This document shows positions 4,307-19,856 of a stretch of DNA of 32,000 nucleotides, piece by piece. A program made the translations under genes and the position numbers. The stretch is taken from contig NC_014537.1 in assembly GCF_000148385.1 (NCBI RefSeq), forward strand, positions 1,170,001-1,202,000, read 5' to 3'. How positions within the stretch are numbered: position 1 is the stretch's first letter; each line of letters starts with the position of its first letter. The notes under the pieces were generated by a model. It saw nothing but the letters and a program-made list of their open reading frames with translations. It searched no databases and had not been told where the DNA came from. Origin of the DNA: Vulcanisaeta distributa DSM 14429 (lineage in GTDB: Archaea > Thermoproteota > Thermoprotei > Thermoproteales > Thermocladiaceae).

Positions 4307-5737
4307 TTAAATATAGTTTGTATAGAAGTAACTAAATATTGATGCCGATAACAATAACAACGCAGCACCCCATGAAACCCCTATGAATGGTCCATCACTT
4401 ATTGGGTTCAGGGCAAGCGATAATGCTATGATTATTATTGCCAAAATAGCCGTTACATAACCAATAATTGATGCCGCCGGCTTACTCAATACCCATGAGG
4501 TGGATTTGGCGCTTTCCGCCTTACCTCCGTTTAAAGCCTTATCCCTAACACTAACCCAAGATCTATGGGCCACGTATATGCCGGCGATTATTATTACTAA
4601 CGGCGGCAGCATCACGAGGGTAGCCCATGACGGGTTAACAGGCACTCCAGGCTGTATTGCACTCCACACGCTTAGTTCGATGAGCCAGGTTAAGCCGATT
4701 AGGGCTAGGGCGAGGATACCTGGCCTATCAAGTGGATGTAGCTTATCGTTCCTATCTAATGCGGGTATTATCAGTAGTATTATTACTGGAACAATCATTG
4801 ACAGTACTTCATCAATCTTAAGCCCAAAGGGCATGTCGAGCATCTTATAAATAAATAGGAAGAACCAGGGTGGATAGGCTGGTACTGCGGCGGCCTGGGG
4901 ACTAGTCGGCGATGGCCCTGGATGTGGCGAAAAGAGTATTGGTATGCTTGGATAAACACTGGGAAGTGCCAGTATTGATGGTATGAGTATTATTATTCCC
5001 CAGGTCATAAAAACTAATGCAACCATGTATATGAAGTTCCTGGGCCACCAAGGCGGTAAATCGTTATTATTCTTATTAATTACAGCTGGAGCCTTATACC
5101 CAGCATCTTTTAACCTCGGCATTAATCCATTCTCCTCAGCCAGGTAGAAGTGGAGTAGGAATAGTAGTATTATGGCCGCAGCTATGGTTATGTGCCAGGC
5201 TAGAAGCCTTGAGAAGAGATCGAGCTCTGTGCCATTGCCGAAGACGATAGGTATTAATGACTGTAAGCCTAATGCCGTTAATAACCCTCTACCTACGTCC
5301 ACAGCGTCGGTAGCCAATACGTCCCCAGTCAGTGAATACCCAATAAATGCTACGCCGAGGGTTAATACGAACATTAATACACCAAGCACCCACTGGAATC
5401 CCCTTGGTTTCTTATAACCACCCTTAAGCATTACGTAAAGTCCATGCATGTATACGGCGAATATCATGATGTAAGCGCCGTATAGGTGTGATGAGAGTAT
5501 TATTGAGCCAAAGGGTACGTTATGTATTATCGACATTGTTGAGTTGTACGCATTGCTTGGTTCATAATAGAATAGAAGCAGCAACCCAGTTAGTACCTGC
5601 CAGGCAAGTGCGCTGGCTGAGATCCCGCCAAGCCAATACTCAATACTAAACATGTAATTAGGTACGCCCATGAAGGGCACATCCTTAAGGTGCAGAAGTT
5701 CGGCGAACCAATCTGTGAAGTCCCTCCTCTCGCCCAT
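4307..5737 (-). CDS. soxN: Cytochrome b subunit of an archaeal bc1-analogous complex (SoxN/SoxC-like), polytopic membrane protein
   Basis: It is a multi-TM protein with a cytochrome b N-terminal signature (WLGGISASALAWQVLTGLLLLFYYEPS; His-containing helices SSHLYGAYIMIFAVYMHG and LLAWHITIAA). It sits 4 nt downstream of a Rieske gene on the same strand. Confidence 0.75.
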   Translation of the reverse strand: MGERRDFTDWFAELLHLKDVPFMGVPNYMFSIEYWLGGISASALAWQVLTGLLLLFYYEPSNAYNSTMSIIHNVPFGSIILSSHLYGAYIMIFAVYMHGLYVMLKGGYKKPRGFQWVLGVLMFVLTLGVAFIGYSLTGDVLATDAVDVGRGLLTALGLQSLIPIVFGNGTELDLFSRLLAWHITIAAAIILLFLLHFYLAEENGLMPRLKDAGYKAPAVINKNNNDLPPWWPRNFIYMVALVFMTWGIIILIPSILALPSVYPSIPILFSPHPGPSPTSPQAAAVPAYPPWFFLFIYKMLDMPFGLKIDEVLSMIVPVIILLIIPALDRNDKLHPLDRPGILALALIGLTWLIELSVWSAIQPGVPVNPSWATLVMLPPLVIIIAGIYVAHRSWVSVRDKALNGGKAESAKSTSWVLSKPAASIIGYVTAILAIIIIALSLALNPISDGPFIGVSWGAALLLLSASIFSYFYTNYI

Positions 5738-5741
5738 GATA

Positions 5742-6533
5742 TCACCCCGTTATTGCTGGGTTTGTGTGCATTGTTACGGCGGTTGATGTCCCACTAATTG
5801 GTGATCCACCCTGTAAGTCGCCTAATGGATTGTTTACAACATCCTGTGTTGGGTTGTTGTATCCTGGGTGTCCGTAGATTACTGGTCCTACCATCTTGAC
5901 TGCGTAGAGTTGGTCGGTGCTCGGGTCCCACTCGAGGACCACCGCCGGCAACGGCCTAACAGTAGGACCAGTAACCACAGCACCACCCAAATAAGGATCA
6001 TAAGTAGAACCATGGCATGAGCAGTGAAGCACCTTATCCTTAGGACCTAATGCCGTGATTGTTTTATACCCAGGTGGGTAAAATGTGAGTTCCGGGAATG
6101 TACAGCCTAGGTGTTGACAGATTGCGCTGAAGGCTACTATGGACTTGCTTGGGCCGACACCACCAGGAAACTCATACTTAACACCATTCTGTGGAATAAC
6201 CACCGTGGTTGGTGGCACCTCGACTGGTTGATTATTGTCATTGCCAAGGTTTAATAGGAAATTGGGCTCATTATTGAGTGGGTATGGGAATAGGGCTATT
6301 GTTGGTTGGGCATTGACAGGTAACTTACTTGCCTTTATTGGGTTGCCATTCTCATCAACAAGCAATAATCTTGGAAATGAGCTAATGCCTATTGATGGCG
6401 GCATAAGGTACTCAAGGCCCCTAAGCATCCCAAGAACAACAGCGGCACCGGAGATGAATAACATGGCCTTAAGGAAGTCTCTTCTACCCATTGATAGGCC
6501 ACCATTGTTACGGCTGCTCCTTTCACTCATCAC
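5742..6533 (-). CDS. soxL: Rieske [2Fe-2S] protein with a Tat signal (SoxL-like)
   Basis: It has a twin-arginine signal (GRRDFLKAMLFISGAAVV) and the Rieske boxes CQHLGC and CSCHGS. The start codon is GTG, with a TATA-like TTTATAAG (6554-6561, minus sense) ~21 nt upstream. Confidence 0.85.
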   Translation of the reverse strand: MMSERSSRNNGGLSMGRRDFLKAMLFISGAAVVLGMLRGLEYLMPPSIGISSFPRLLLVDENGNPIKASKLPVNAQPTIALFPYPLNNEPNFLLNLGNDNNQPVEVPPTTVVIPQNGVKYEFPGGVGPSKSIVAFSAICQHLGCTFPELTFYPPGYKTITALGPKDKVLHCSCHGSTYDPYLGGAVVTGPTVRPLPAVVLEWDPSTDQLYAVKMVGPVIYGHPGYNNPTQDVVNNPLGDLQGGSPISGTSTAVTMHTNPAITG

Positions 6534-6577
6534 TAACGGTACTTAATACTTACCTTATAAATTTTACTTAAATGTTA

Positions 6578-6632
6578 TTATCCCAATTTTATCCCAATTT
6601 ATTCCTAATTAACACCTATTTTTATCCCTATA
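6578..6632. promoter_or_regulatory. Array of TTATCCC-type direct repeats between the divergent soxL and cbsA core promoters
   Basis: There is a perfect tandem TTATCCCAATT at 6578-6588 and 6589-6599. A degenerate third unit TATTCCTAATT is at 6600-6610, and a further TTATCCCTA lies at about 6622-6630. The array is flanked by the two TATA-like boxes (6554-6561 and 6649-6656). Confidence 0.4.
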
Positions 6633-6675
6633 TCAACATATGATAAGACTTAAATACCAGGATTAATCCCAACGT

Positions 6676-8019
6676 ATGATGAGGATCGGGCTAAGACTGG
6701 CTACAATACTTGCGATAGCCCTGGTCATAATAGTGGGTGTGCTAGCCATGGTATACCCAGTCCCATTGGCCCAGGCGCCATCGGGTATCGTGGCTTATAA
6801 GGTTGTTGGCAGCGCCAACTTAGCAGCACCAGGTACCGAAAGCTTCTGGAAGGAAATACCCGCATACAACGTATCCCTTGTGCCGAACTTATCGACGCAG
6901 ATGATACCAATTAGCTACAACGTACCAACATCAGGGTTAGTACCCTACGTATTAGTTAAGGCAGCATGGAATGGCACGGACATAATCATCCTATTGGAGT
7001 GGCCAGACCCGTATGGGCCAAGCTACGCAGGCCCTGCGGCAATAGCGGGCCCTGGTCACTGGCCCGTTGTTTATAATCCAAATGGGCCCCTTAACATGAC
7101 ATTCCTAAAGCTACTAACTGGTACGTTCCATAAGAAGTACTTCGTAATTAATGCAAGTTATGCGGTGATTAAGGGTTCGCCAAGACCGATGGAGTACGTA
7201 CTTGCTTATTTAGCTCCTCATTATGGTGTTTACTTCTATGGATATTACGTTAATTTAACGGACGGTCATTATTACCCTGATAGGGTAGCCATAATGTGGT
7301 ATATGGGTTCGCAGCAAAGTCCAAGCGATTGCATGAACATAGGCGGTCCGCACCCAGGTTATAAGATACCTGGTGAGCTTGGTCAACTTGCCCAGGCGTA
7401 TTTAGGGACAAACGTGGAGGAATACACAGGTGGCTCTCTGAGCTCTGGTGCAGCCAATATTTGGGAATGGATCTCAGGAGCCACTGACCCGCAGGGTGAT
7501 AACTTCAATTACTTCACTAATGTAACGTGGGACGTGGAGAACGGCATCGACCCAGCAGCTGCGCAACAATTTGCGTCAAATCCGCATGGGTTCTTCATAA
7601 ACTTATTCGTTAATCAGACGGGGCTTTATGACGTAGGCGATGGAGGTATTTGGTACCCAAATGCCACAGGCCCTGAGCCCGGTTACTTCAGTGGGTATAC
7701 TGGCGCTGTTTATGAGAATGGTTATTGGATAGTGGAGTTCGTTAGGCCGTTATCAGCGCCAATGCCCGATACGATAAACCTGGTGCCGGGTCAGACATAC
7801 GATGTTGCCTTCGCAGTTTGGATTGGCAAGGCCGGTGAGACCTCCTGGGATAAGTCAATATCGCCAAGCTTTATACCACTGACTATCTCCACATCGCCAC
7901 CACCATCACACGCTGTATCGGCAATACCCGCGGCGGTCTTAACGGTGGCTGTGATAGGGATAGTAATAGCGGTGGTGGCCATAGGCCTCGTATACTACTC
8001 AATAAGGAGGAGAGGGTGA
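6676..8019 (+). CDS. cbsA: Membrane-anchored extracellular glycoprotein, CbsA-like (candidate cytochrome b558/566 subunit A)
   Basis: It has an N-terminal TM/signal, a C-terminal TM followed by RRRG, and 9 N-x-S/T sequons. It lies next to a hydrophobic partner and divergent from the Rieske/cytochrome b pair, which matches the content of the Sulfolobus cbsAB-soxLN locus. A TATA-like CTTAAATA is at 6649-6656. The assignment is by architecture and context, not by an alignment I could run. Confidence 0.55.
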   Translation: MMRIGLRLATILAIALVIIVGVLAMVYPVPLAQAPSGIVAYKVVGSANLAAPGTESFWKEIPAYNVSLVPNLSTQMIPISYNVPTSGLVPYVLVKAAWNGTDIIILLEWPDPYGPSYAGPAAIAGPGHWPVVYNPNGPLNMTFLKLLTGTFHKKYFVINASYAVIKGSPRPMEYVLAYLAPHYGVYFYGYYVNLTDGHYYPDRVAIMWYMGSQQSPSDCMNIGGPHPGYKIPGELGQLAQAYLGTNVEEYTGGSLSSGAANIWEWISGATDPQGDNFNYFTNVTWDVENGIDPAAAQQFASNPHGFFINLFVNQTGLYDVGDGGIWYPNATGPEPGYFSGYTGAVYENGYWIVEFVRPLSAPMPDTINLVPGQTYDVAFAVWIGKAGETSWDKSISPSFIPLTISTSPPPSHAVSAIPAAVLTVAVIGIVIAVVAIGLVYYSIRRRG

Positions 8020-8028
8020 TTGAGCTAA

Positions 8029-9063
8029 ATGGATGCTAACATTATTAGTGGTAAAAATCATAACTATGTTCACGGAGTACTCAATAGAGATCAAACAGTA
8101 TTGGTGGCGTTATTCTCGGTATTATTTATCCTCTACTTCATATTTAGGGAGTTCCTATTCTACGTTGCGCCATTCATGCCAAGTACTGGTATTAATATGG
8201 CTGATCTAGAGCTCATTGGTACATTCTCTGTGTTTGGGCTTGAGGTGGTTATACCATTCATGCTATACTTCATTAGAATACCACTTAGTAGGATTTACTT
8301 CCTGGTCACCGTGTTAATGCTGTGGGGAGGCACATTACTCAGTATTCTTTATCCAATGTATTACATGACTATTCCATGGGTAATAGGTAGTCTCGTCTAT
8401 GCTGCGTTGACCGTATTATCGCTAATAGCACTAGTCTATGAATTGAGAATTAAATCGTTGCCATTAGCACCACTAATTCTTCTTCAATTAATATCTCTAG
8501 CACTATACATCGCTAACGTATTAACGGAATACTTCGCATTTTCCCTAGGTGGATTAAGCCCATACCTAGTCTACCCAATGCTCTATCTAGCAGGTATTGG
8601 AGGTGTAGTACTTCTCATATATAGTATATACATATTAATTATTAATAGAATCAATACAAAGTTGATTTTGGGCTATGTGTCGGCGGCCGTACTAGGCCTA
8701 TTGATGGCATATCCCCTTTACTCATTGACAATTTATAATAGCTTCATGTCCCACATAATGTCCATGGTATTTGCCATGGGTTTAGGAATACTCGCACCTC
8801 CATCCTCAATGCCATTGATTGCGGTATTTATTGGGATTTACACGTATTCAATAATTGCCCTGGTAATAAGCGGCATAATGAATAAGATGCCCATGCATTA
8901 CTTAATTGCCGTTGCCTCACTTATCTACGTGACCACCGCATTCATAGAGCATGCAATAATCGTAATATTTGCTGCAGTACTAACAATAACCAACCTAATG
9001 ATATACCTAAGCATCACCAGTAAGGCACAGGCCATGGGTAATGACCATGCGGATATTTCATAG
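8029..9063 (+). CDS. cbsB: Highly hydrophobic polytopic membrane protein, CbsB-like
   Basis: It has roughly 9-10 predicted TM helices and almost no soluble segments. It starts 9 nt after the CbsA-like gene. Confidence 0.5.
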   Translation: MDANIISGKNHNYVHGVLNRDQTVLVALFSVLFILYFIFREFLFYVAPFMPSTGINMADLELIGTFSVFGLEVVIPFMLYFIRIPLSRIYFLVTVLMLWGGTLLSILYPMYYMTIPWVIGSLVYAALTVLSLIALVYELRIKSLPLAPLILLQLISLALYIANVLTEYFAFSLGGLSPYLVYPMLYLAGIGGVVLLIYSIYILIINRINTKLILGYVSAAVLGLLMAYPLYSLTIYNSFMSHIMSMVFAMGLGILAPPSSMPLIAVFIGIYTYSIIALVISGIMNKMPMHYLIAVASLIYVTTAFIEHAIIVIFAAVLTITNLMIYLSITSKAQAMGNDHADIS

Positions 9064-9427
9064 ATACCTAGTTTACGTAACCAAGGATGTAGGTAGGAGG
9101 GTTAGGTATCCGGGATCAGTGAGACTATGTAATAATGAGGGTAGGGTATTAAGGCTTAGGTTGAGGTATGGCGGACCATTCACTAAGACGGGGCTTGAGA
9201 ATTACGTAACCTACGTAGCACTCGTTAGTAATGATATTATTGTAAGTAATAAGTCTATTGAAAGCGAAGCATTTCAACTAAGTCCTGGCGAGTGCATTAA
9301 CTTTGACGTTGAGTATGAGGTAAGTGGTGAATTGGCTGATGAATTGGATTTTGTTAAGCTTAAGATGATTAATGATGGCTTGCTTAGCGTTGGTGGTTTT
9401 CAATTCGACGTAATTACTGAGGATTAG
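9041..9427 (+). CDS. Hypothetical soluble protein (128 aa)
   Basis: The ORF overlaps the 3' end of the CbsB-like gene by 23 nt, which suggests co-transcription. I recognise no motif. By position it could correspond to the small extra gene that follows the Sulfolobus cluster, but that is speculative. Confidence 0.45.
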   Translation: MTMRIFHRYLVYVTKDVGRRVRYPGSVRLCNNEGRVLRLRLRYGGPFTKTGLENYVTYVALVSNDIIVSNKSIESEAFQLSPGECINFDVEYEVSGELADELDFVKLKMINDGLLSVGGFQFDVITED

Positions 9428-9869
9428 AGTTATCACTAAGTTTTAAGCTCTCCTTAATTAATACGTATAGTTCGTCCCAATGCTTATAGGCATTATCCTC
9501 TATGAAATAAACATCACCATACCTTAAACCAAGTCTCTTAACCAAGCCATTCTTCTCAAGCAATTCCAGGTGGTGCTTAACCGTCTTATAATCCATATTC
9601 AACTCCTTAGCAATTCTATTGATGTTTGTTGGCCTCTCCCTGAGCAACAGCAATATCTTAGACCTAATTGGTCCGCCCCTCGACTCAACAAGCAACCACC
9701 TAATTCGAGCATACATGGGACAGGTATGTATCATCTTATCAGTAACCCCATCATTACTTACATGATCTCTATCGTTGTTCATTATTGATGCATCATCATT
9801 CATTTCGCCCACTAGTAATGCTAGGAAGGGCATTATTAAGCTTTTAATGAGTTCACCAAGGGCTATCAT
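9414..9869 (-). CDS. ArsR/SmtB-type winged-helix transcriptional regulator
   Basis: IRSKILLLLRERPTNINRIAKELNMDYKTVKHHLELLEKNGLVKRL is a classic ArsR-type HTH. The hydrophobic and acidic N-terminal ~45 aa may be upstream of the true start (internal ATGs are present). The protein has only one Cys (HTCPMY). Confidence 0.75.
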   Translation of the reverse strand: MIALGELIKSLIMPFLALLVGEMNDDASIMNNDRDHVSNDGVTDKMIHTCPMYARIRWLLVESRGGPIRSKILLLLRERPTNINRIAKELNMDYKTVKHHLELLEKNGLVKRLGLRYGDVYFIEDNAYKHWDELYVLIKESLKLSDNSNPQ

Positions 9870-9954
9870 TAAACCTTATCAGTAATCAATTGGTTTAAAT
9901 ACTTAATTATATGCATATCAATATATTTATATTTATTTTTATTTAAAAGAATTC

Positions 9955-9968
9955 ATTTAAATTTAAAT
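9955..9968. repeat. Palindromic 14-mer ATTTAAATTTAAAT, copy 1
   Basis: This is an exact 14-nt match to 10668-10681. It is built from overlapping ATTTAAAT palindromes and lies upstream of the TATA box TTTATAAA (9976-9983). Confidence 0.5.
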
Positions 9969-10011
9969 AGAAACATTTATAAACATACGCACTTCATCTT
10001 GCTGACCAGGT

Positions 10012-10107
10012 ATGTGCATGCCAAGTCCATACATGACTAAGAAGAAGGATAAGGAGAATGTTAAGGCTGAGGATAGGAGCAAGCAGGAGACGCAGGTTAA
10101 GGAGTAA
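10012..10107 (+). CDS. Candidate small ORF (31 aa, Lys/Glu-rich): MCMPSPYMTKKKDKENVKAEDRSKQETQVKE
   Basis: The ATG lies 28 nt downstream of a good TATA box (TTTATAAA, 9976-9983), which is leaderless-type spacing. The ORF is below the ORF-track cutoff and I recognise no homology. Confidence 0.25.
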   Translation: MCMPSPYMTKKKDKENVKAEDRSKQETQVKE

Positions 10108-10215
10108 GTGCTACCTAAAAGTGATTACCGTACTTAAAATACTCACCTCTATATCTCCTACTGTGCAGAGACTGCATTGCCTCTCCGCTTTTAAAGGGAA
10201 TCCATGTAAGTCTAC

Positions 10216-10653
10216 GTGATGAAATTACTTATTTTAATCACCAACTCAACGTTGGATCGATTATTAACGTTAGGCACGATAACTCTTGGTGCAGTTAGTA
10301 TGGGTCATGAGGTTGCCATTTACGCCACGCAGTCTGCATCTTTTGCATTCCTTAGGAATTATGCAGATAAAATCGGTAATTATAACGGTGATTCTTCATT
10401 AGAAGTGTTAGTTAATGGTGTCGTTAATGGCTATAACAATGCCGTAATTAATGGTAAATTTTTCAAGTGGTATGAAATGATTAAGCAGGCCAAGGAGATT
10501 GGTAATGTGAGAGTTTACGTTTGTACCCAGCCCTTTGAGTTGGCAGGTATTAAGGTTAGTTTGGGTGATTTTCTTGATATAGTTGATGAATTGGTTATGA
10601 TTGGTAAATACATTGAGCTGCTTGAGTGGTGTGATAAGTCGGTCTCATTGTGA
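10216..10653 (+). CDS. DsrE/DsrF-like family sulfur-relay protein
   Basis: It is ~145 aa with a Rossmann-like start (KLLILITNS), which I read as typical of DsrE-family proteins, and a candidate active-site Cys in VRVYVCTQPFELAGI. A TATA-like TTTTAAAG is at 10189-10196, 20 nt upstream. A TusA gene lies next to it. Confidence 0.65.
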   Translation: MMKLLILITNSTLDRLLTLGTITLGAVSMGHEVAIYATQSASFAFLRNYADKIGNYNGDSSLEVLVNGVVNGYNNAVINGKFFKWYEMIKQAKEIGNVRVYVCTQPFELAGIKVSLGDFLDIVDELVMIGKYIELLEWCDKSVSL

Positions 10654-10667
10654 ATTTGAATAAATTT

Positions 10668-10681
10668 ATTTAAATTTAAAT
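10668..10681. repeat. Palindromic 14-mer ATTTAAATTTAAAT, copy 2
   Basis: This is an exact match to 9955-9968. It lies ~40 nt upstream of the tusA TATA box TATATAAA (10720-10727). Confidence 0.5.
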
Positions 10682-10749
10682 GAATACTGAACTGTGCAAA
10701 AACAGCACTGATTTAAGGCTATATAAAGCATTACGTTAGTTATAATGTC

Positions 10750-10995
10750 GTGAAATTCGAAAAGGTGAATAACAATAGGTATTTATTGGATGCCCGGGGT
10801 TATGCCTGTCCATACCCTCAAGTCTTTACGTTGAAGGCCATTAAGGAATTGAAGGAAGGTTCGATAATGGAGGTTCTCGTTGATAACCCAGCGAGTTGTG
10901 ACAATGTACCGGCGGCTGTTAGGAAGCTTGGTCATGAGGTTCTTGAAGTTAGGCAGGAGAGTAATTACTGGAGGATTATAATTAGGAAGCGGTGA
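10750..10995 (+). CDS. tusA: TusA/SirA-family sulfurtransferase
   Basis: It has the CPxP active-site motif in LDARGYACPYPQV within an ~80-aa two-layer alpha/beta-sized protein. The start is GTG, with TATATAAA 22 nt upstream. Confidence 0.85.
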   Translation: MKFEKVNNNRYLLDARGYACPYPQVFTLKAIKELKEGSIMEVLVDNPASCDNVPAAVRKLGHEVLEVRQESNYWRIIIRKR

Positions 10996-12737
10996 TGGAG
11001 ATGAGGGATGATAGGATAAGGGTGTTTAGGGAGAGACTAGATAAGTACCTGGATCTTGGGATTAACCTATTGTCCCTTGCCATTGGCTGTTCAGTTAAGG
11101 TTGACCTATACGATACGTTATACCCAGCCCTCTCACTCGTTAACAATGAAATAGCTAAGTTAAACATAGAGATACAGCCTAGAGAGGACGTAGCCGTGTT
11201 AAGGAGTAACGGTGATTACTCACTGGTTAGGAGGATATATGATATAACTGGTAATGGTGTAAATAAGGATGAATTAGTTAGTATTAATCCATCAGTGGCA
11301 TTGCTGTTACTGCAGGTTCACCAGTCACGTGCATCATCGCCGAGGGAATTTGCAAGTTCAATAATAAGCCTATATAGGAGGTTGGGTAGTTCGCCTGTTA
11401 GGGTTAGGATTGGTAAGGGTCACTCTATAGTCTCGACTAAGGAGAAGGCTGAGTTTGCCCTCATCGATTTCATAAGTACGAAGAGTGGTGATGGGTACTT
11501 ATTGGCTAATAATGATACGATACAGATAATTGACCCGACGGAGGACCCAGGTAGTTATAGGCAGGTGGCTACCGCAGTAAGTAATGCGTTGAATGACCTA
11601 TTCATAAAGGGCGTGTATAGGGATATAACGATATACCCAGTCTATGATGCGCCAATTGAGGATTTAAAGGAGAAATTAATGAAGAATTTTAGGGAATTTA
11701 GCAGTAAGTGGGACCTTCAATTAAGTACTGATGTGCAACAGCCAAGGGTTAATTACCTATTGATGGGCGCCACCGTGGTTGGTACATTAGATAGGGAACC
11801 ACCAATGTTCTACGACAACATTAAGGCCGGCTTTAAGATACTTATTACTAGGCCCTTTGGTGAGCTTTCCATAATATCTACGTATTTAACGGCTCATGTT
11901 GATGAGTCAATAATGGATGAGCTTGAACGTAACGTGATGAGTATTGAGGATCTTGAGAAATTGAAGATAAAAATAATGGACATACTCTCAAGACCTAACA
12001 TCGAGATAGCCAGAGTAATAAGTAAGTACCTACCTGAGATAGGTGAGGCGTTTAGGGAGGATGAGCATATAGCAGCCACAATAGATGTATCAGGACCCGG
12101 CATATTTGTATTCAAGGAGCTGGCCGAGCAGGCCAATGTCGATGTTGCACTATACAATATACCATTGATATCGCCTGAGGTTGCGAGATTCGCCGCTGAG
12201 CACTACATAATTACAGATGCCACAGCAGGTACTAATGGGGCTATAGCAATTGTGGCTAGTAAGGATGTTATTGACTCGATTGTCAGGGATTTAAGGGGTA
12301 TTGAGGATGTTCAGCCCATGGTGATTGGTGAGGTAATGGGTAAGGGGTCTGGCAGGTTATTCGTGCCTGATTACGTAACGAGGTACATAACGAGTAAATC
12401 ATTATTGATGAAGCTCACTATGAACATTGATGTATTAAGAAGCCTAAGGAGACAGCAGGTTAAGTGTGAAAAGGTGAGGGTTGAGGCGAGGGTATTCGGT
12501 AATGTGCAGGGTGTTGGTTTTAGACCAACACTACGTAGGCAAGCCCTATCCCTTGGATTAACTGGGTATGTGAGGAACCTTCCAGATGGTTCGGTTGAGG
12601 TGGTCGCTGAGGGATGTAAGGAGGATGTAATGGCTCTCATTGAGTGGATTAGGTCAAGCCCCGTTGGTTCTGTTGAGACTATAAATTACGTCATTAAGCA
12701 ATACTTTGGTGAGTTTGAGGATTTCGAAATAAGGTAA
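10992..12737 (+). CDS. SelD-like PurM-superfamily ATP-utilising enzyme fused to a C-terminal acylphosphatase domain
   Basis: The N-terminal loop AIGCSVKVD parallels the SelD GAGCGCKIS loop (Cys, then Lys three residues later). The PurM/SelD Asp/Asn motifs are present: EDVAVL, IIDPTEDP, NALNDLFIKG, IDVSGPG and TNGAIAIV. The C-terminal 90 aa carry both acylphosphatase signatures (VFGNVQGVGFR; GYVRNLPDGSVEVVAEG). The start (GTG 10992 or ATG 10995) overlaps the tusA stop (TGATG). Confidence 0.75.
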   Translation: MMEMRDDRIRVFRERLDKYLDLGINLLSLAIGCSVKVDLYDTLYPALSLVNNEIAKLNIEIQPREDVAVLRSNGDYSLVRRIYDITGNGVNKDELVSINPSVALLLLQVHQSRASSPREFASSIISLYRRLGSSPVRVRIGKGHSIVSTKEKAEFALIDFISTKSGDGYLLANNDTIQIIDPTEDPGSYRQVATAVSNALNDLFIKGVYRDITIYPVYDAPIEDLKEKLMKNFREFSSKWDLQLSTDVQQPRVNYLLMGATVVGTLDREPPMFYDNIKAGFKILITRPFGELSIISTYLTAHVDESIMDELERNVMSIEDLEKLKIKIMDILSRPNIEIARVISKYLPEIGEAFREDEHIAATIDVSGPGIFVFKELAEQANVDVALYNIPLISPEVARFAAEHYIITDATAGTNGAIAIVASKDVIDSIVRDLRGIEDVQPMVIGEVMGKGSGRLFVPDYVTRYITSKSLLMKLTMNIDVLRSLRRQQVKCEKVRVEARVFGNVQGVGFRPTLRRQALSLGLTGYVRNLPDGSVEVVAEGCKEDVMALIEWIRSSPVGSVETINYVIKQYFGEFEDFEIR

Positions 12738-12847: not shown

Positions 12848-13096
12848 GTGGTTGATATGAGTAATGTCATTGATGTTAGGGGTCTTCAATGCCCAACACC
12901 AGTTACAATTGTCGCTAATGCGGTGGATAAGGCTGAGGCAGGGTCGACGCTTACGGTAATAACGGACGACTTCATATGCTTCATGATGATACAGAGGATA
13001 TTGAAGATTCTCAATGTGGAGATTAGGGAGGCTGTGCAGTTGGATGATGGTAATTATAGAATAGTCGTCATTAAGTCTCCTAAAGGTACTCAATAA
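12848..13096 (+). CDS. tusA: Second TusA/SirA-family sulfurtransferase
   Basis: It has the CPxP motif in DVRGLQCPTPVT. The likely true start is ATG 12857, preceded by GGTG. Confidence 0.8.
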   Translation: MVDMSNVIDVRGLQCPTPVTIVANAVDKAEAGSTLTVITDDFICFMMIQRILKILNVEIREAVQLDDGNYRIVVIKSPKGTQ

Positions 13097-14022: not shown

Positions 14023-14709
14023 GTGGCATATTTCGACATCGACATAGCCTGCAGGGAAGGGTTTGGTGAACGTAAGTTAGTCTCAATGATTCAACAACGG
14101 ATTAACTCCCTGCCCTGGGACTTAGATCTTAATGAGCAGGATTTTCTAACGGGCTATGCCTACCAGGATTTGAGATATTACTTATTATATAAGTTTGGAT
14201 TGCTTAATTTGAGTAATAATGATGCATCATATGAGTTATGTAAAAGGATTTTGAGGAACGAGGAACAGGTGACGAAAATAGTTGATGAATGGTTTAATTG
14301 GTGGGTTATTAAGTGGAGACAGAGGGTTAAACTTGTCTTTAGTGAGAATGAGCAGTTGAATAATGAGAACAATAATAACGCTAATCCTCAGTCTAATGCT
14401 GACGAATTACTTAAGAGTATTCCTAAGAATCTAGTTGATAAGTTACGTAGAGAGATAATCGTGGAATTAATAAGGCAGAACGAGGTTTGTAGCCTTGATG
14501 TGGTTTCAGACTTCATATTAAGGACCACACTTAGTGAGTTGATTAATGAGTATGGTAAGGATGGCACGTTGAAATTAATATCGACAAATATCACGAGCAT
14601 ACGCTTAAGGCTACTAAAGAAAATAATGGAAATAAGAGATTCCAATCAGCCACTCGTGATTCTCAGGGTTAGAATCAGCCCATCGCAGACATACCAAGGA
14701 ATCTCGTAA
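14023..14709 (+). CDS. Hypothetical protein with an Asn-rich low-complexity linker
   Basis: The 228-aa ORF starts with GTG. It has two helical-looking halves joined by NNENNNNANPQSNA. The next gene (radical SAM) starts 5 nt later. I recognise no motif. Confidence 0.5.
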   Translation: MAYFDIDIACREGFGERKLVSMIQQRINSLPWDLDLNEQDFLTGYAYQDLRYYLLYKFGLLNLSNNDASYELCKRILRNEEQVTKIVDEWFNWWVIKWRQRVKLVFSENEQLNNENNNNANPQSNADELLKSIPKNLVDKLRREIIVELIRQNEVCSLDVVSDFILRTTLSELINEYGKDGTLKLISTNITSIRLRLLKKIMEIRDSNQPLVILRVRISPSQTYQGIS

Positions 14710-14714
14710 CACCA

Positions 14715-16259
14715 ATGAACGCATACCAAAAATCTTACAGGAAAGGAATGATTAAGGTAGCCATTGCTTACCCATCAAATGCCAGAGTAGCCCTTCAATC
14801 ACTATCAATACACATAATCAGGAAACTATTAAATGAGCATTCAAACGTGTATTCAGACTTCGTATTTATAGGCGATGACGGTAAATCCCTAACTAAATCA
14901 CTTAGGGATTTCGACATAGTGATATTTTCAGTGCATTATGAACTTGATTACCCACGTATACTAAAGATGATGGAGTTAAGCGGTATAAACCCATATAATT
15001 CCCAAAGGAGTATTGATGATCCATTAATTGTGTTAGGTGGACCAACATTAATGGCAAATCCTGAGCCAATGGCGCCGTTTGCTGACATAATGCTCATTGG
15101 CGATGCTGAGGTGCTAATTCCTCAACTTATTAGTCATTATATGGAGTATGGTAAGAATATTGATAGTTATATTGGTCCAATGGGCTTTTACGTGCCAAGC
15201 ATTGGCAGGCATACCGTAACCAAGGCATTCGTAAAGGATCTTTCATACTCAATTAGGTTAATTCATGATACGGCAATCGAGTTAGGCCTGGGTAATGTTA
15301 AGTCAATATTTAGTAATCCGGCGGTTCTCGAGGTTATGAGAGGCTGTCCGAGAGGGTGCTTGTTCTGTATGGAGGGCTTTGTTAGTAGGCCTGTTAGGTT
15401 TGCTGATATTACTTCTATTAAGGGATTGATACTTAGGGATTTGGGTAGGAACGGAATAATTAATGGTGTATCCTTAATAGGTCTCTCCGTGACTGATCAT
15501 CCAGGTTTTAAGGAATTAATGAACTTTCTAGTAAATGAGTTAAAGCTTAACGTTTCTGTTCCTTCCCTACGAGTTGACACATTAGACAGGGACATTATTA
15601 GGTTAATTGCGAAGGGTGGTCAAAGGGTTCTCACAATAGCCCCTGAATCGAGTGAAAGGTTGAGGAAGGCATTGGGTAAGGGGTTTTCGGACGATGACGT
15701 TGTTAAGATAGCTATGGACGCAGTAAGTGTGGGTATTGATCATCTAAAGCTTTACTTCATGGTTGGATTACCAGGTGAAGGCGATGAGGACATAAAATCA
15801 ATAGTTAATCTCTTAACGAGACTTAGGAGGTTAGGCATTAAGCATTCACTTTCAGTTAATCCATGGATACCAAAGCCACATACCCCACTACAATGGTTAC
15901 CAATGGCTGATGATAAGGTCATTAACGATAGAATTAAAACTCTAAGGGATGCACGAACATATGATGAGTTTTCAACATACAATGTGCTTGACGCCAAGGT
16001 TCAGGCATTGCTAGCGCTTGGTGATAGGGACGTTGGCAACTTAATATTTGAGGCATCATTAACGAACCTTGATAGGGGCTCCTGGAGAAGATTACTTAGG
16101 AAGTACGAGAACTTACTTAATAAGTACGTGTACTCATGGAAACCACTTAATGGTGAATTACCCTGGAGCCACATAAAAATTCCAGGTGCTGAGGAGGAAA
16201 ATCTTAAATCATTATTATTTAAGTACGTTAACGAAGTTGGCATTAATCTTCCTACTTAA
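14715..16259 (+). CDS. Radical SAM enzyme with an N-terminal B12-binding-like (flavodoxin-like) domain
   Basis: The CxxxCxxC cluster is in VMRGCPRGCLFCMEG. The N-terminal region (VAIAYPSN...FDIVIFSVHYE...LVLGGP) is typical of the B12-binding-like domain found in class-B-like radical SAM proteins. Confidence 0.85.
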   Translation: MNAYQKSYRKGMIKVAIAYPSNARVALQSLSIHIIRKLLNEHSNVYSDFVFIGDDGKSLTKSLRDFDIVIFSVHYELDYPRILKMMELSGINPYNSQRSIDDPLIVLGGPTLMANPEPMAPFADIMLIGDAEVLIPQLISHYMEYGKNIDSYIGPMGFYVPSIGRHTVTKAFVKDLSYSIRLIHDTAIELGLGNVKSIFSNPAVLEVMRGCPRGCLFCMEGFVSRPVRFADITSIKGLILRDLGRNGIINGVSLIGLSVTDHPGFKELMNFLVNELKLNVSVPSLRVDTLDRDIIRLIAKGGQRVLTIAPESSERLRKALGKGFSDDDVVKIAMDAVSVGIDHLKLYFMVGLPGEGDEDIKSIVNLLTRLRRLGIKHSLSVNPWIPKPHTPLQWLPMADDKVINDRIKTLRDARTYDEFSTYNVLDAKVQALLALGDRDVGNLIFEASLTNLDRGSWRRLLRKYENLLNKYVYSWKPLNGELPWSHIKIPGAEEENLKSLLFKYVNEVGINLPT

Positions 16260-19373: not shown

Positions 19374-19856
19374 TCATGATTGAGTCTCAAAAGTGCTCCT
19401 TGCTAAATTCACGAGGGCTTCGATATCGGGCAGATCTCTTCTAACTTGGTCAGGTCTAAGCCTTGCCTCATGAAATCCCTCCACGTGTAAAAACCATGCC
19501 CGTCCCCACCACCACCTGACCTCCCTCTTACCAAGCCTATCTGCGGCGTCATCCACAGCATCAAATAGTAATTGCGCTGTCCACCTACCAATCTCAGACG
19601 CTCTCCTCGCCTCGTCTAGGCCTAGGATTATGGCGATCGCCTTGATGGCCTCCTCAGCCGCCTTGTAGAGCTTCTCACTGGCCTGCACGGGATCCTTCTC
19701 GATTAAATTCCTACCTTCATTTAGGAATTTTTCTGCGAGTTCAAGATGCGCTTTACTCGTTGTTAATGGGTCAAGCGATAATGCCTTTGATATTAGGTCA
19801 ATTATGTCAATGCCCCTTTTCTCCGCCTCATCGAGTATCAGCTTTGGGATTTCCAC
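19374..19856 (-). CDS. PaREP1-family protein (HEPN-superfamily-like)
   Basis: LYKAAEEAIKAIAIILGL...RWTAQLLFDAV...WWWGRAWFLHVEGFHE is typical of the crenarchaeal PaREP1 family. It contains an R-x4-H motif (RAWFLH, nt 19485-19502). Confidence 0.7.
   Translation of the reverse strand: MEIPKLILDEAEKRGIDIIDLISKALSLDPLTTSKAHLELAEKFLNEGRNLIEKDPVQASEKLYKAAEEAIKAIAIILGLDEARRASEIGRWTAQLLFDAVDDAADRLGKREVRWWWGRAWFLHVEGFHEARLRPDQVRRDLPDIEALVNLARSTFETQS

Follow-up and report, generated by a model that had tools for sequence, protein, structure and literature searches.

A SelD-like enzyme fused to an acylphosphatase in Vulcanisaeta distributa and its apparent second PurM-type N-domain

The closest described relatives of the gene considered here belong to the SelD-like family, which was defined in Sulfolobales and Thermoproteales by Li, Jiang, Ni, Liu and Zhang (2014; BMC Genomics 15:908, PMC4210487). 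In that work, all Thermoproteales SelD-like proteins were reported as fused to an acylphosphatase (AcyP), SirA (TusA)-like and "Prx-like" COG2210 neighbours were described, and Desulfurococcales were stated to lack the family. The authors proposed two models for the synthesis of thiophosphate or acyl-thiophosphate, with AcyP hydrolysing a product, and drew the locus of Vulcanisaeta distributa DSM 14429 in their Figure 4 (PMC4210487). Here, we analyse this locus in a window of 32,000 nucleotides (contig NC_014537.1, positions 1,170,001 to 1,202,000 of the forward strand; all coordinates below are those of the window), where the SelD-like/acylphosphatase fusion gene lies at 10992-12737 on the + strand.

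Two characterised systems frame the comparison. The first is selenophosphate synthetase (SelD/SEPHS), a PurM-superfamily enzyme, in which the N-domains of the canonical homodimer pair through β2 and β5 into a barrel of eight strands, and whose ATPase activity requires dimerisation (PMC7595633). The second is the HypF/HypE pair, which synthesises the cyanide ligands of [NiFe]-hydrogenase and, as the fusion protein would, combines an AcyP module with a PurM-fold, ATP-dependent enzyme acting on cysteine-bound sulfur; HypF itself is a series of AcyP, zinc-finger, YrdC and Kae1 domains, and the fusion protein carries AcyP only.

It is practically certain that our gene represents, in V. distributa DSM 14429, the archaeal SelD-like family (NF038049), which is AcyP-fused in Thermoproteales. 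This identity follows from three lines of evidence, of which the first is the match to the NCBIfam model NF038049 ("SelD-related putative sulfur metabolism protein", SelD_rel_HyperS), a curated equivalog hidden Markov model (HMM), with 707.1 bits (cutoff 250, E = 8e-213) over residues 11-476 and profile positions 2-464 of 465. The second is the 100% identity to ADN50627.1 (V. distributa DSM 14429, 580 aa, deposited as "acylphosphatase") and to the 578-aa RefSeq protein WP_245522581.1 (entered as "SelD-related putative sulfur metabolism protein"), and the third is the published description. The protein of V. moutnovskia is 92% identical. All motifs of the family, GC[AS]VK, R-x-D, GKGHSI, NNDT, N-x-x-N-D, D-[VI]-[ST]-G-P-G and T-x-G-T-N-G, are present in the fusion protein, and alignments of 46 and 48 sequences show them as invariant or almost invariant.

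That SelD-like and AcyP parts are fused is therefore already known, as both gene and architecture are published and annotated. An initial annotation, made from the DNA letters of the window, had taken the combination for one not described, which does not hold in view of the paper of Li et al., the NCBIfam model and the Joint Genome Institute (JGI) names of relatives ('selenophosphate synthase/acylphosphatase'). The conserved Cys, Lys and Asp residues, the fusion, the neighbours and the thiophosphate hypothesis were all in print by 2014 (PMC4210487). Our analysis differs from that paper in finding the family beyond Sulfolobales and Thermoproteales, with AcyP as an adjacent gene in many of the added lineages, and in addressing about 95 extra residues and their PurM-N-like fold, which the paper does not discuss.

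The open reading frame (ORF) is intact and uninterrupted, and the frame proposed in the initial annotation proved real. Its start is another matter, since the deposited proteins begin at ATG 10995 (GenBank ADN50627.1) or ATG 11001 (RefSeq WP_245522581.1) and not at GTG 10992, and the start codon is ambiguous among these three in-frame candidates (positions 10990-11003). We number residues from GTG 10992. The protein begins with an N-terminal helix, followed by a flexible GC33xxK36 loop, a predicted N-type domain (N1), the canonical N-domain (N2), a C-domain (AIRS_C), a tether and AcyP. The gene and its parts are given below, where pLDDT is the predicted local distance difference test score of the structural model.

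10992-12737, + strand: SelD-like/acylphosphatase fusion gene, an ORF of 581 codons from GTG 10992 with NF038049 and PF00708 matches
11085-11099, + strand: loop G32-C33-S-V-K36, counterpart of SelD's Sec/Cys-x-x-Lys catalytic loop
11157-11492, + strand: N1, a β-α-β-α-β-β module (aa 56-167) with R64-x-D66 and GKGHSI, predicted to be a PurM-type N-domain
11493-11801, + strand: N2, the canonical AIRS-type N-domain body (aa 168-270), carrying D175 (NNDT), N198 and D202
11802-12425, + strand: AIRS_C-type C-domain (aa 271-478), carrying D365 (TIDVSGPG) and T411-x-G-T-N-G416
12426-12470, + strand: flexible linker (aa 479-493), pLDDT <50 for aa 479-490, frame continuous
12471-12734, + strand: acylphosphatase domain (aa 494-581), with the phosphate-binding loop V-Q-G-V-G-F-R511 and N529

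Among characterised enzymes, SelD comes nearest to the N-terminal 480 residues, which form a PurM-superfamily enzyme. An AlphaFold2 model of the fusion protein, built from 46 sequences, reached a mean pLDDT of 91.7 and a predicted TM-score (pTM) of 0.79. When it was searched with Foldseek, the top PDB matches were selenophosphate synthetases, namely human SPS1 (3fd5, E = 3e-17) and the enzymes of Leishmania, Aquifex and E. coli, and HypE and ThiL ranked next. The fold-level membership of the superfamily is clear despite missed Pfam cutoffs: neither PF00586 (AIRS) nor PF02769 (AIRS_C) matches the fusion protein, in which Pfam recognises the AcyP domain only. Among 48 family members, 19 are matched by AIRS_C at E <= 1, and five relatives checked singly scored 25-29 bits, above the cutoff of 23.1; their AIRS matches were weak, and AIRS matches in family members map to about residues 191-265. 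Sequence searches of the PDB gave less, with phmmer of the full protein returning AcyP matches and nothing for the first 480 residues, and the family profile returning marginal HypE and SelD matches only (E = 0.016-0.2). Comparison of the family with a small SelD profile by hhalign gave a probability of 99.3% (E = 1e-20) and an alignment that is confident from about residue 185 to 462. This profile was assembled from PDB alignments and the tail matches of the representative search because the search for SelD homologues yielded only close enterobacterial sequences (77-94% identical); with E. coli SelD alone, only residues 195-393 were aligned.

However, the fusion protein is not SelD, because it misses the cutoffs of the SelD equivalog models by a wide margin. 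It scored 27.2 bits against a cutoff of 125 for TIGR00476 and 42.8 against 291 for PRK14105; the match covers only residues 175-455, the PRK14105 model matching from residue 175 onward. The two proteins share the superfamily fold, the flexible N-terminal Cys-x-x-Lys loop, putative ligands that line up with D68, N87, D91 and D227 of E. coli SelD, and an R-[DE]-D-x-x-V motif like that around E. coli D51. In contrast, the SelD-like protein is only about 16-19% identical to SelD, its core counts 480 residues as opposed to about 345, and it has an additional N-type domain into which the GGH[ST] motif is displaced. Its loop carries Cys, and never Sec in the sequences seen, its hosts are reported to lack selenium traits, and it has an AcyP partner.

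The initial annotation had proposed a SelD-like core with a Cys-x-x-Lys loop and metal/ATP ligands, and the invariant residues, the Foldseek matches and the hhalign comparison support this. The motifs it listed lie where it had placed them (GCSVK at residues 32-36, REDVAV at 64-69, IDPTEDP at 180-186, NALNDLF at 198-204 and IDVSGPG at 364-370), as does the codon of Cys33 (11088-11090), and a further motif, NNDT, occupies 173-176. In 46 family members, C33, K36, D66, D175, N198, D202 and D365 are invariant, and within the loop so are G32 and V35; most full-length relatives at greater distance also retain GCxxK. GCSVK aligns with G16-C17-G-C-K20 of E. coli SelD in a colinear but weak hhalign alignment (E = 0.002-0.03), the spacing from K36 to D66 is 30 residues as compared with 31 from K20 to D51, and the local pLDDT of the loop is lowered to 70-75, as expected of a flexible loop.

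By HMM alignment, N198 and D202 correspond to E. coli N87 and D91, and D365 to D227. The Asp of IDPTEDP, which the initial annotation counted among the retained ligands, does not belong there: by motif and spacing, D181 corresponds to E. coli D75 (IVDNP), and the likely equivalent of D68 is D175 in the invariant NNDT, from motif, spacing and the start of the SelD model match at residue 175. D66 (R-E-D-V-A-V) is matched to E. coli D51 (R-D-D-A-A-V) by motif, in a colinear alignment of weak statistics. D159 is also invariant and lies 16 residues before D175, a hairpin spacing, as compared with 17 in SelD, and it is a candidate for the alternative D51 equivalent.

The representative search also returned a distant clade of 420-520 aa (P0290-P0332) that covers the whole profile from the Cys loop on. 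Its members have GC[AGST]GK instead of GC[AS]VK, and NNDT and GKGHS are mostly absent; the clade may connect SelD with the SelD-like family. Another match, P0385 (1864 aa, eight matches to profile positions 125-193), was dismissed as spurious because it is a low-complexity repeat protein.

Next, we consider the residues that SelD lacks. A large insertion between the first two Asp motifs had been noticed in the initial annotation at about residues 70-185 (roughly 120 aa) and considered to be without counterpart. The insertion exists, but it spans about residues 73-167, roughly 95 in number, between the strand of D66 and that of D175, and it is common to the whole SelD-like family rather than peculiar to the V. 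distributa protein. Its secondary structure (pLDDT >90) consists of β76-83, α92-98, β102-110, α117-132, β138-148 and β155-163, and it holds the invariant G141-K-G-H-S-I146 and D159. An AlphaFold2 model of residues 56-167 alone retained a pLDDT of 90.5. Among the Foldseek matches of this isolated N1 model in the PDB, the top 17 and most of the top 50 were PurM-superfamily chains, led by HypE (2z1u, E = 1e-4, TM-score normalised to the query (TMq) 0.56-0.58) and followed by ThiL, PurM, SelD and PurL; the TMq of the top matches ranged from 0.50 to 0.58, with 105-120 of 112 residues/columns aligned. Judged by these models, the extra segment appears to be a second PurM-type N-domain and not foreign sequence, and the weak colinear alignment to SelD also speaks against the lack of a counterpart.

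That alignment, a greedy hhalign of residues 28-167 with SelD 1-165, is colinear throughout and places GKGHSI on the GGHSI of SelD (E. coli 138-142). N2 is devoid of a GGHS-like motif, and its canonical position reads STDVQQP. Motif retention is thereby complementary, with N1 keeping the GGHS-like motif and D66 and N2 keeping D175, N198 and D202. A tight turn of four residues links β5 of N1 (155-163) to β2 of N2 (168-177), and strand 68-72 disappeared from the model of N1 on its own, a sign that this strand may pair with the core. From the predicted structures we moderately favour an N-N-C arrangement that would act as a single-chain pseudo-dimer. An internal repeat of N1 and N2 was sought with hhalign, which found no similarity (probability 0.6%), and a HMMER search of the PDB with the N1 profile gave nothing significant. 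Since no N1/N2 sequence repeat was found, the idea of a duplication rests on the predicted fold and the weak colinear alignment.

A precedent for such an architecture is PurL, the FGAR (formylglycinamide ribonucleotide) amidotransferase, in which internal duplication (A1-B1-A2-B2) created a single-chain PurM pseudo-dimer in which one active site is functional. The isolated N1 model matches PurL (3d54) as well. The SelD-like protein differs in that only the N-type domain appears to be duplicated in the model, with no second C-domain. If confirmed, N-N-C would be a new domain arrangement in a textbook enzyme superfamily.

The C-terminal AcyP domain is genuine, and its catalytic residues, as read from the sequence, are intact. 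The initial annotation had recognised both acylphosphatase signatures at about residues 491-581; PF00708 matches well above its threshold (residues 498-580, 84.4 bits, cutoff 22.5, E = 7e-24), and VFGNVQGVGFR511 (VQGVGFR, residues 505-511) and YVRN (526-529) supply the catalytic Arg511 and Asn529. The closest solved structure is the stand-alone AcyP of Sulfolobus solfataricus (2bjd; phmmer E = 3e-22), which superposes on the model with a root-mean-square deviation of 0.9 Å and a TM-score of 0.95. The two are about 50% identical and share the catalytic Arg loop and Asn, but the domain of the fusion protein is tethered to the SelD-like C-terminus by 12-15 residues that are predicted to be disordered. 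Almost every AcyP that is fused or adjacent keeps the Arg loop and the Asn.

To place the fusion in its wider distribution, we compared 80 genomic loci, one genome per species. AcyP is fused in frame in 18 of them, which are all the complete Thermoproteales loci and come from five genera. In another 33, it is a separate gene just downstream; 32 of these are clear, and the remaining one (L013) is a Thermoproteaceae contig cut before the SelD-like stop codon. The separate genes are nearly all directly adjacent or overlapping, very often with a 4-nt overlap of start and stop. By the labels of metagenome-assembled genomes (MAGs) and records, they occur in Acidilobaceae, Desulfurococcales, Pyrodictiaceae, Ignisphaera, Thermofilaceae, Caldisphaera and others, and further in Hydrothermarchaeales, Methanomethylicia and one Thaumarchaeota MAG. 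The linkage, by fusion or adjacency, thus extends to 51 of 80 loci; the other 29 have no AcyP within 3 kb and are mainly from Sulfolobaceae, where the linkage is absent, and Nitrososphaerales, where it mostly is.

Protein collections gave a concordant picture. Among 5.8 billion proteins, about 40 clusters of 562-586 aa with PF00708 come from Vulcanisaeta, Caldivirga, Thermocladium, Thermoproteus and Pyrobaculum, and the relatives of other lineages are about 465-495 aa long and lack PF00708. At 50% identity, a set of 1.84 billion proteins holds 199 clusters of the family, which by MAG labels includes Desulfurococcales, Acidilobales, Pyrodictiaceae, Ignisphaera, Thermofilaceae, Nitrososphaerales, Hydrothermarchaeales and Methanomethylicia. 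The family is small yet spread over most lineages of the TACK group (Thaumarchaeota, Aigarchaeota, Crenarchaeota and Korarchaeota), including aerobic ammonia oxidisers, a spread that argues for biosynthetic sulfur activation over a dissimilatory role. AcyP is normally a single small gene per genome, and its conserved adjacency together with its fusion is a "Rosetta-stone" signal of functional coupling. The SelD-like/AcyP coupling is much broader than the 2014 paper reported.

The same comparison bears on whether the fusion could be meaningless, that is, a frameshift, an assembly error or a chance read-through into a housekeeping acylphosphatase. A single-base change could fuse the two genes where they overlap by 4 nt, as they often do in archaea other than Thermoproteales, and the predicted disorder of the linker would fit this reading. 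Nevertheless, the in-frame fusion recurs in all 18 complete Thermoproteales loci from five genera and in the roughly 40 clusters of 562-586 aa, it is found in two independent complete Vulcanisaeta genomes, and the adjacency of AcyP is kept across many archaeal orders, which cannot be chance. At the junction of the two halves in our gene (12400-12470), the frame is continuous, with no stop codon and no homopolymer run. We reject a frameshift or assembly artefact on the grounds of the clean junction, the 18 in-frame fusions and the two complete genomes, and consider a meaningless fusion extremely improbable.

Several loci of this comparison deserve a remark of their own. In the draft genome of Vulcanisaeta sp. 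JCM 14467 (L034, NZ_BBDM01000002.1), the SelD-like, AcyP and radical SAM genes at 6001-11250 are each matched by tblastn in several out-of-frame pieces, which suggests frameshift errors in the draft assembly; an intact 578-aa protein of this strain exists (P0004). The loci of Nitrososphaerales/Thaumarchaeota (L042-L074) show the SelD-like gene followed by two tandem TusA genes, often with a rhodanese and YeeE, and no AcyP; glycosyltransferase, UbiA and PAS genes recur there, probably as lineage-specific synteny. The only locus labelled bacterial (L031, a MAG labelled Acidobacteriota, CBDCMH010000005.1) has the order SelD-like, TusA, AcyP about 1 kb downstream, another TusA and a flavoprotein resembling sulfide:quinone reductase (SQR-like), and it could reflect horizontal transfer or a mis-binned archaeal contig.

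The pairing of AcyP with a PurM-type enzyme brings HypF and HypE back into the comparison. The initial annotation had drawn this analogy, and it is a fair precedent; to our knowledge, HypF-HypE is the one characterised pair in which an AcyP domain cooperates with a PurM-fold protein. A module of that kind would use AcyP to hydrolyse carbamoyl or acyl phosphate and load the group onto Cys33 or TusA, at a thiol or persulfide, and the PurM-type domain would dehydrate or activate the adduct with ATP, for example turning thiocarbamate into thiocyanate or forming a thiocarboxylate. HypF AcyP domains and the HypE-HypF complex are indeed among the PDB matches, HypE comes just below SelD in the fold and HMM searches and first for the isolated N1 model, and the AcyP catalytic residues are intact. 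Nevertheless, the HypE model TIGR02124 gave only 20.2 bits against a cutoff of 251.6, the reactive Cys is N-terminal as in SelD, and the SelD-like part ends without the C-terminal Cys motif of HypE. Neither the gene nor its conserved neighbours encode the YrdC or Kae1 domains on which HypF depends, the AcyP domain resembles stand-alone AcyPs (E = 3e-22) far more closely than it does HypF (E = 1e-7), and the genomic context is one of sulfur trafficking and not of hydrogenase maturation. We therefore regard a HypF/HypE-like reaction as improbable, though the least improbable of the alternatives that we weighed.

The genes flanking the fusion gene in the window are as follows:

9414-9869, − strand: ArsR-type regulator
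10216-10653, + strand: DsrE-like protein (PF02635, 24.8 bits, cutoff 22.7), the "Prx-like COG2210" neighbour of Li et al.
10750-10995, + strand: TusA/YedF-like sulfur-carrier gene (PF01206, 84 bits), with its Cys in a CPYP motif
12848-13096, + strand: second TusA-like gene with a CPTP motif (PF01206, 60 bits), downstream of the fusion gene

The stop codon TGA of the upstream TusA gene (10993-10995) overlaps the candidate starts of the fusion gene (TGATG overlap), which suggests translational coupling, and the two genes are probably co-transcribed. An AT-rich stretch at 10716-10752, with a TATA-like 'tatataaa' about 25 nt upstream of the TusA start, looks in sequence like the archaeal promoter of a leaderless tusA/selD-like-acyP transcript. 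The best NCBIfam match of this TusA is YedF (PRK11018, 73.9 bits against a cutoff of 79), and a second TusA-like gene recurs upstream or downstream of SelD-like genes. Across the 80 loci, TusA occurs in 62, a YeeE/YedE "Sulf_transp" membrane protein (PF04143) in 27, a two-domain rhodanese in about 20, a DsrE-like protein in about 10, SQR-like flavoproteins in 5-7 and a PALP enzyme in 5. These recurrent neighbours form a set for sulfane-sulfur and thiosulfate trafficking, paralleling the bacterial SelD-YedE-YedF association. With that association and with bacterial YeeE/YeeD (TsuA/TsuB), the archaeal loci share a TusA-family carrier, best matched by YedF, and a YeeE/YedE Sulf_transp protein beside a SelD-type enzyme. 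The differences are that SelD-YedE-YedF has a genuine SelD as partner and is taken to handle selenium, that YeeE/YeeD assimilates thiosulfate without any SelD, and that the V. distributa window has no YeeE/YedE gene.

The parallel with SelD-YedE-YedF raises the question of whether the protein might be a divergent but genuine selenophosphate synthetase that serves, with YedF-like and YedE-like partners, a selenium-utilisation trait so far unrecognised in archaea. SelD is its closest characterised relative, with the Cys-x-x-Lys loop and the same ligands, the upstream TusA is best matched by a 'selenium metabolism protein YedF', YeeE/YedE genes recur nearby, and Li et al. stopped short of fully excluding a selenium role (PMC4210487). 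On the other hand, the family forms a separate clade in organisms reported to be devoid of every known selenium trait (PMC4210487), the scores fall far short of the SelD equivalog cutoffs, no Sec occurs in the loop among the sequences inspected, and the rhodanese, DsrE-like and SQR-like neighbours point to sulfur. We accordingly hold a selenium enzyme to be highly unlikely.

Other features of the window lie farther from the gene. Just upstream of the ArsR/DsrE/TusA cluster are a 344-aa polytopic membrane protein (8029-9063) and an overlapping 128-aa ORF (9041-9427), both without Pfam match; the latter and the ArsR gene are syntenic in another Vulcanisaeta (L001). Downstream, a 228-aa ORF without Pfam match (14023-14709) is followed by a 514-aa radical SAM protein with Radical_SAM_N2 (14715-16259), and this pair is syntenic in Vulcanisaeta sp. 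JCM 14467 (L034). A respiratory-looking cluster at 4307-8019 comprises cytochrome b (4307-5737, − strand), a Rieske protein (5742-6533, − strand) and an EB_dh (ethylbenzene-dehydrogenase-like haem) domain protein (6676-8019, + strand), and a gene of the PaREP1/PaREP8 family, a repetitive family typical of Thermoproteales genomes, lies at 19374-19856.

We propose a mechanism that would unite the anatomy of the protein with its neighbours, the likeliest function being an ATP-driven activation of sulfur brought by TusA, possibly to thiophosphate. Many archaea lack the usual cysteine-desulfurase route of sulfur mobilisation. Sulfane sulfur would arrive on the probably co-transcribed TusA/YedF-like carrier, itself fed in many lineages by YeeE/YedE, rhodanese or DsrE-like proteins, and would pass to Cys33, where it would be phosphorylated from ATP as selenide is by SelD. 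N1 and N2 would pack like the two N-domains of the SelD homodimer into one composite ATP site, in which elements of N1 would complete the N2/C site that binds ATP. The product could be thiophosphate or an enzyme-bound perthiophosphate, and the AcyP partner might hydrolyse a labile phospho-anhydride intermediate or by-product to pull or proofread the reaction. We give this explanation as a whole, from identity and anatomy to TusA-fed sulfur phosphorylation and AcyP as partner hydrolase, about an even chance. Its parts are not equally credible: an ATP-dependent role in sulfur trafficking is slightly favoured by the evidence, thiophosphate as the product is a tentative and rather unlikely guess, and the specific role given to AcyP is doubtful.

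Several points weigh against this explanation. The N1 assignment comes from predicted structure, with Foldseek E-values of about 1e-4 and unrelated α/β matches such as FtsZ appearing from about 2e-3, and no sequence similarity to SelD reaches statistical significance over the N-terminal 170 residues. The role of AcyP is unexplained because thiophosphate is not an acyl phosphate, and AcyP may not be obligatory, as family members without an adjacent AcyP are found in Sulfolobaceae and the ammonia-oxidising Nitrososphaerales. Associated genes of the YedF and YedE type would fit selenium handling just as well. Moreover, reviews of 2022 and May 2026 still call the function of SelD-like proteins speculative, and we found no experimental follow-up on these proteins in the literature.

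We know of no enzyme dedicated to making thiophosphate. The boldest proposal, that an N-N-C pseudo-dimer with an obligate AcyP and a YedF-like TusA constitutes the first dedicated biological thiophosphate/perthiophosphate synthase and a previously unrecognised PurM architecture, is in our estimate a long shot, though one worth naming. As a discovery the fusion matters little, whereas the SelD-like family remains a biochemical problem, with the remaining interest in its chemistry, in the wider coupling to AcyP and in the likely N-N-C pseudo-dimer. The AcyP linkage (51 of the 80 loci), the recurrence of YeeE/YedE and rhodanese genes and the indication of a second N-domain sharpen the experiments that could address it. 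A large part of the TACK archaea, ammonia oxidisers among them, conserves the SelD-like/TusA/AcyP module, and such a synthase, if true, would provide activated sulfur for biosynthesis in these archaea, many of which have no cysteine desulfurases.

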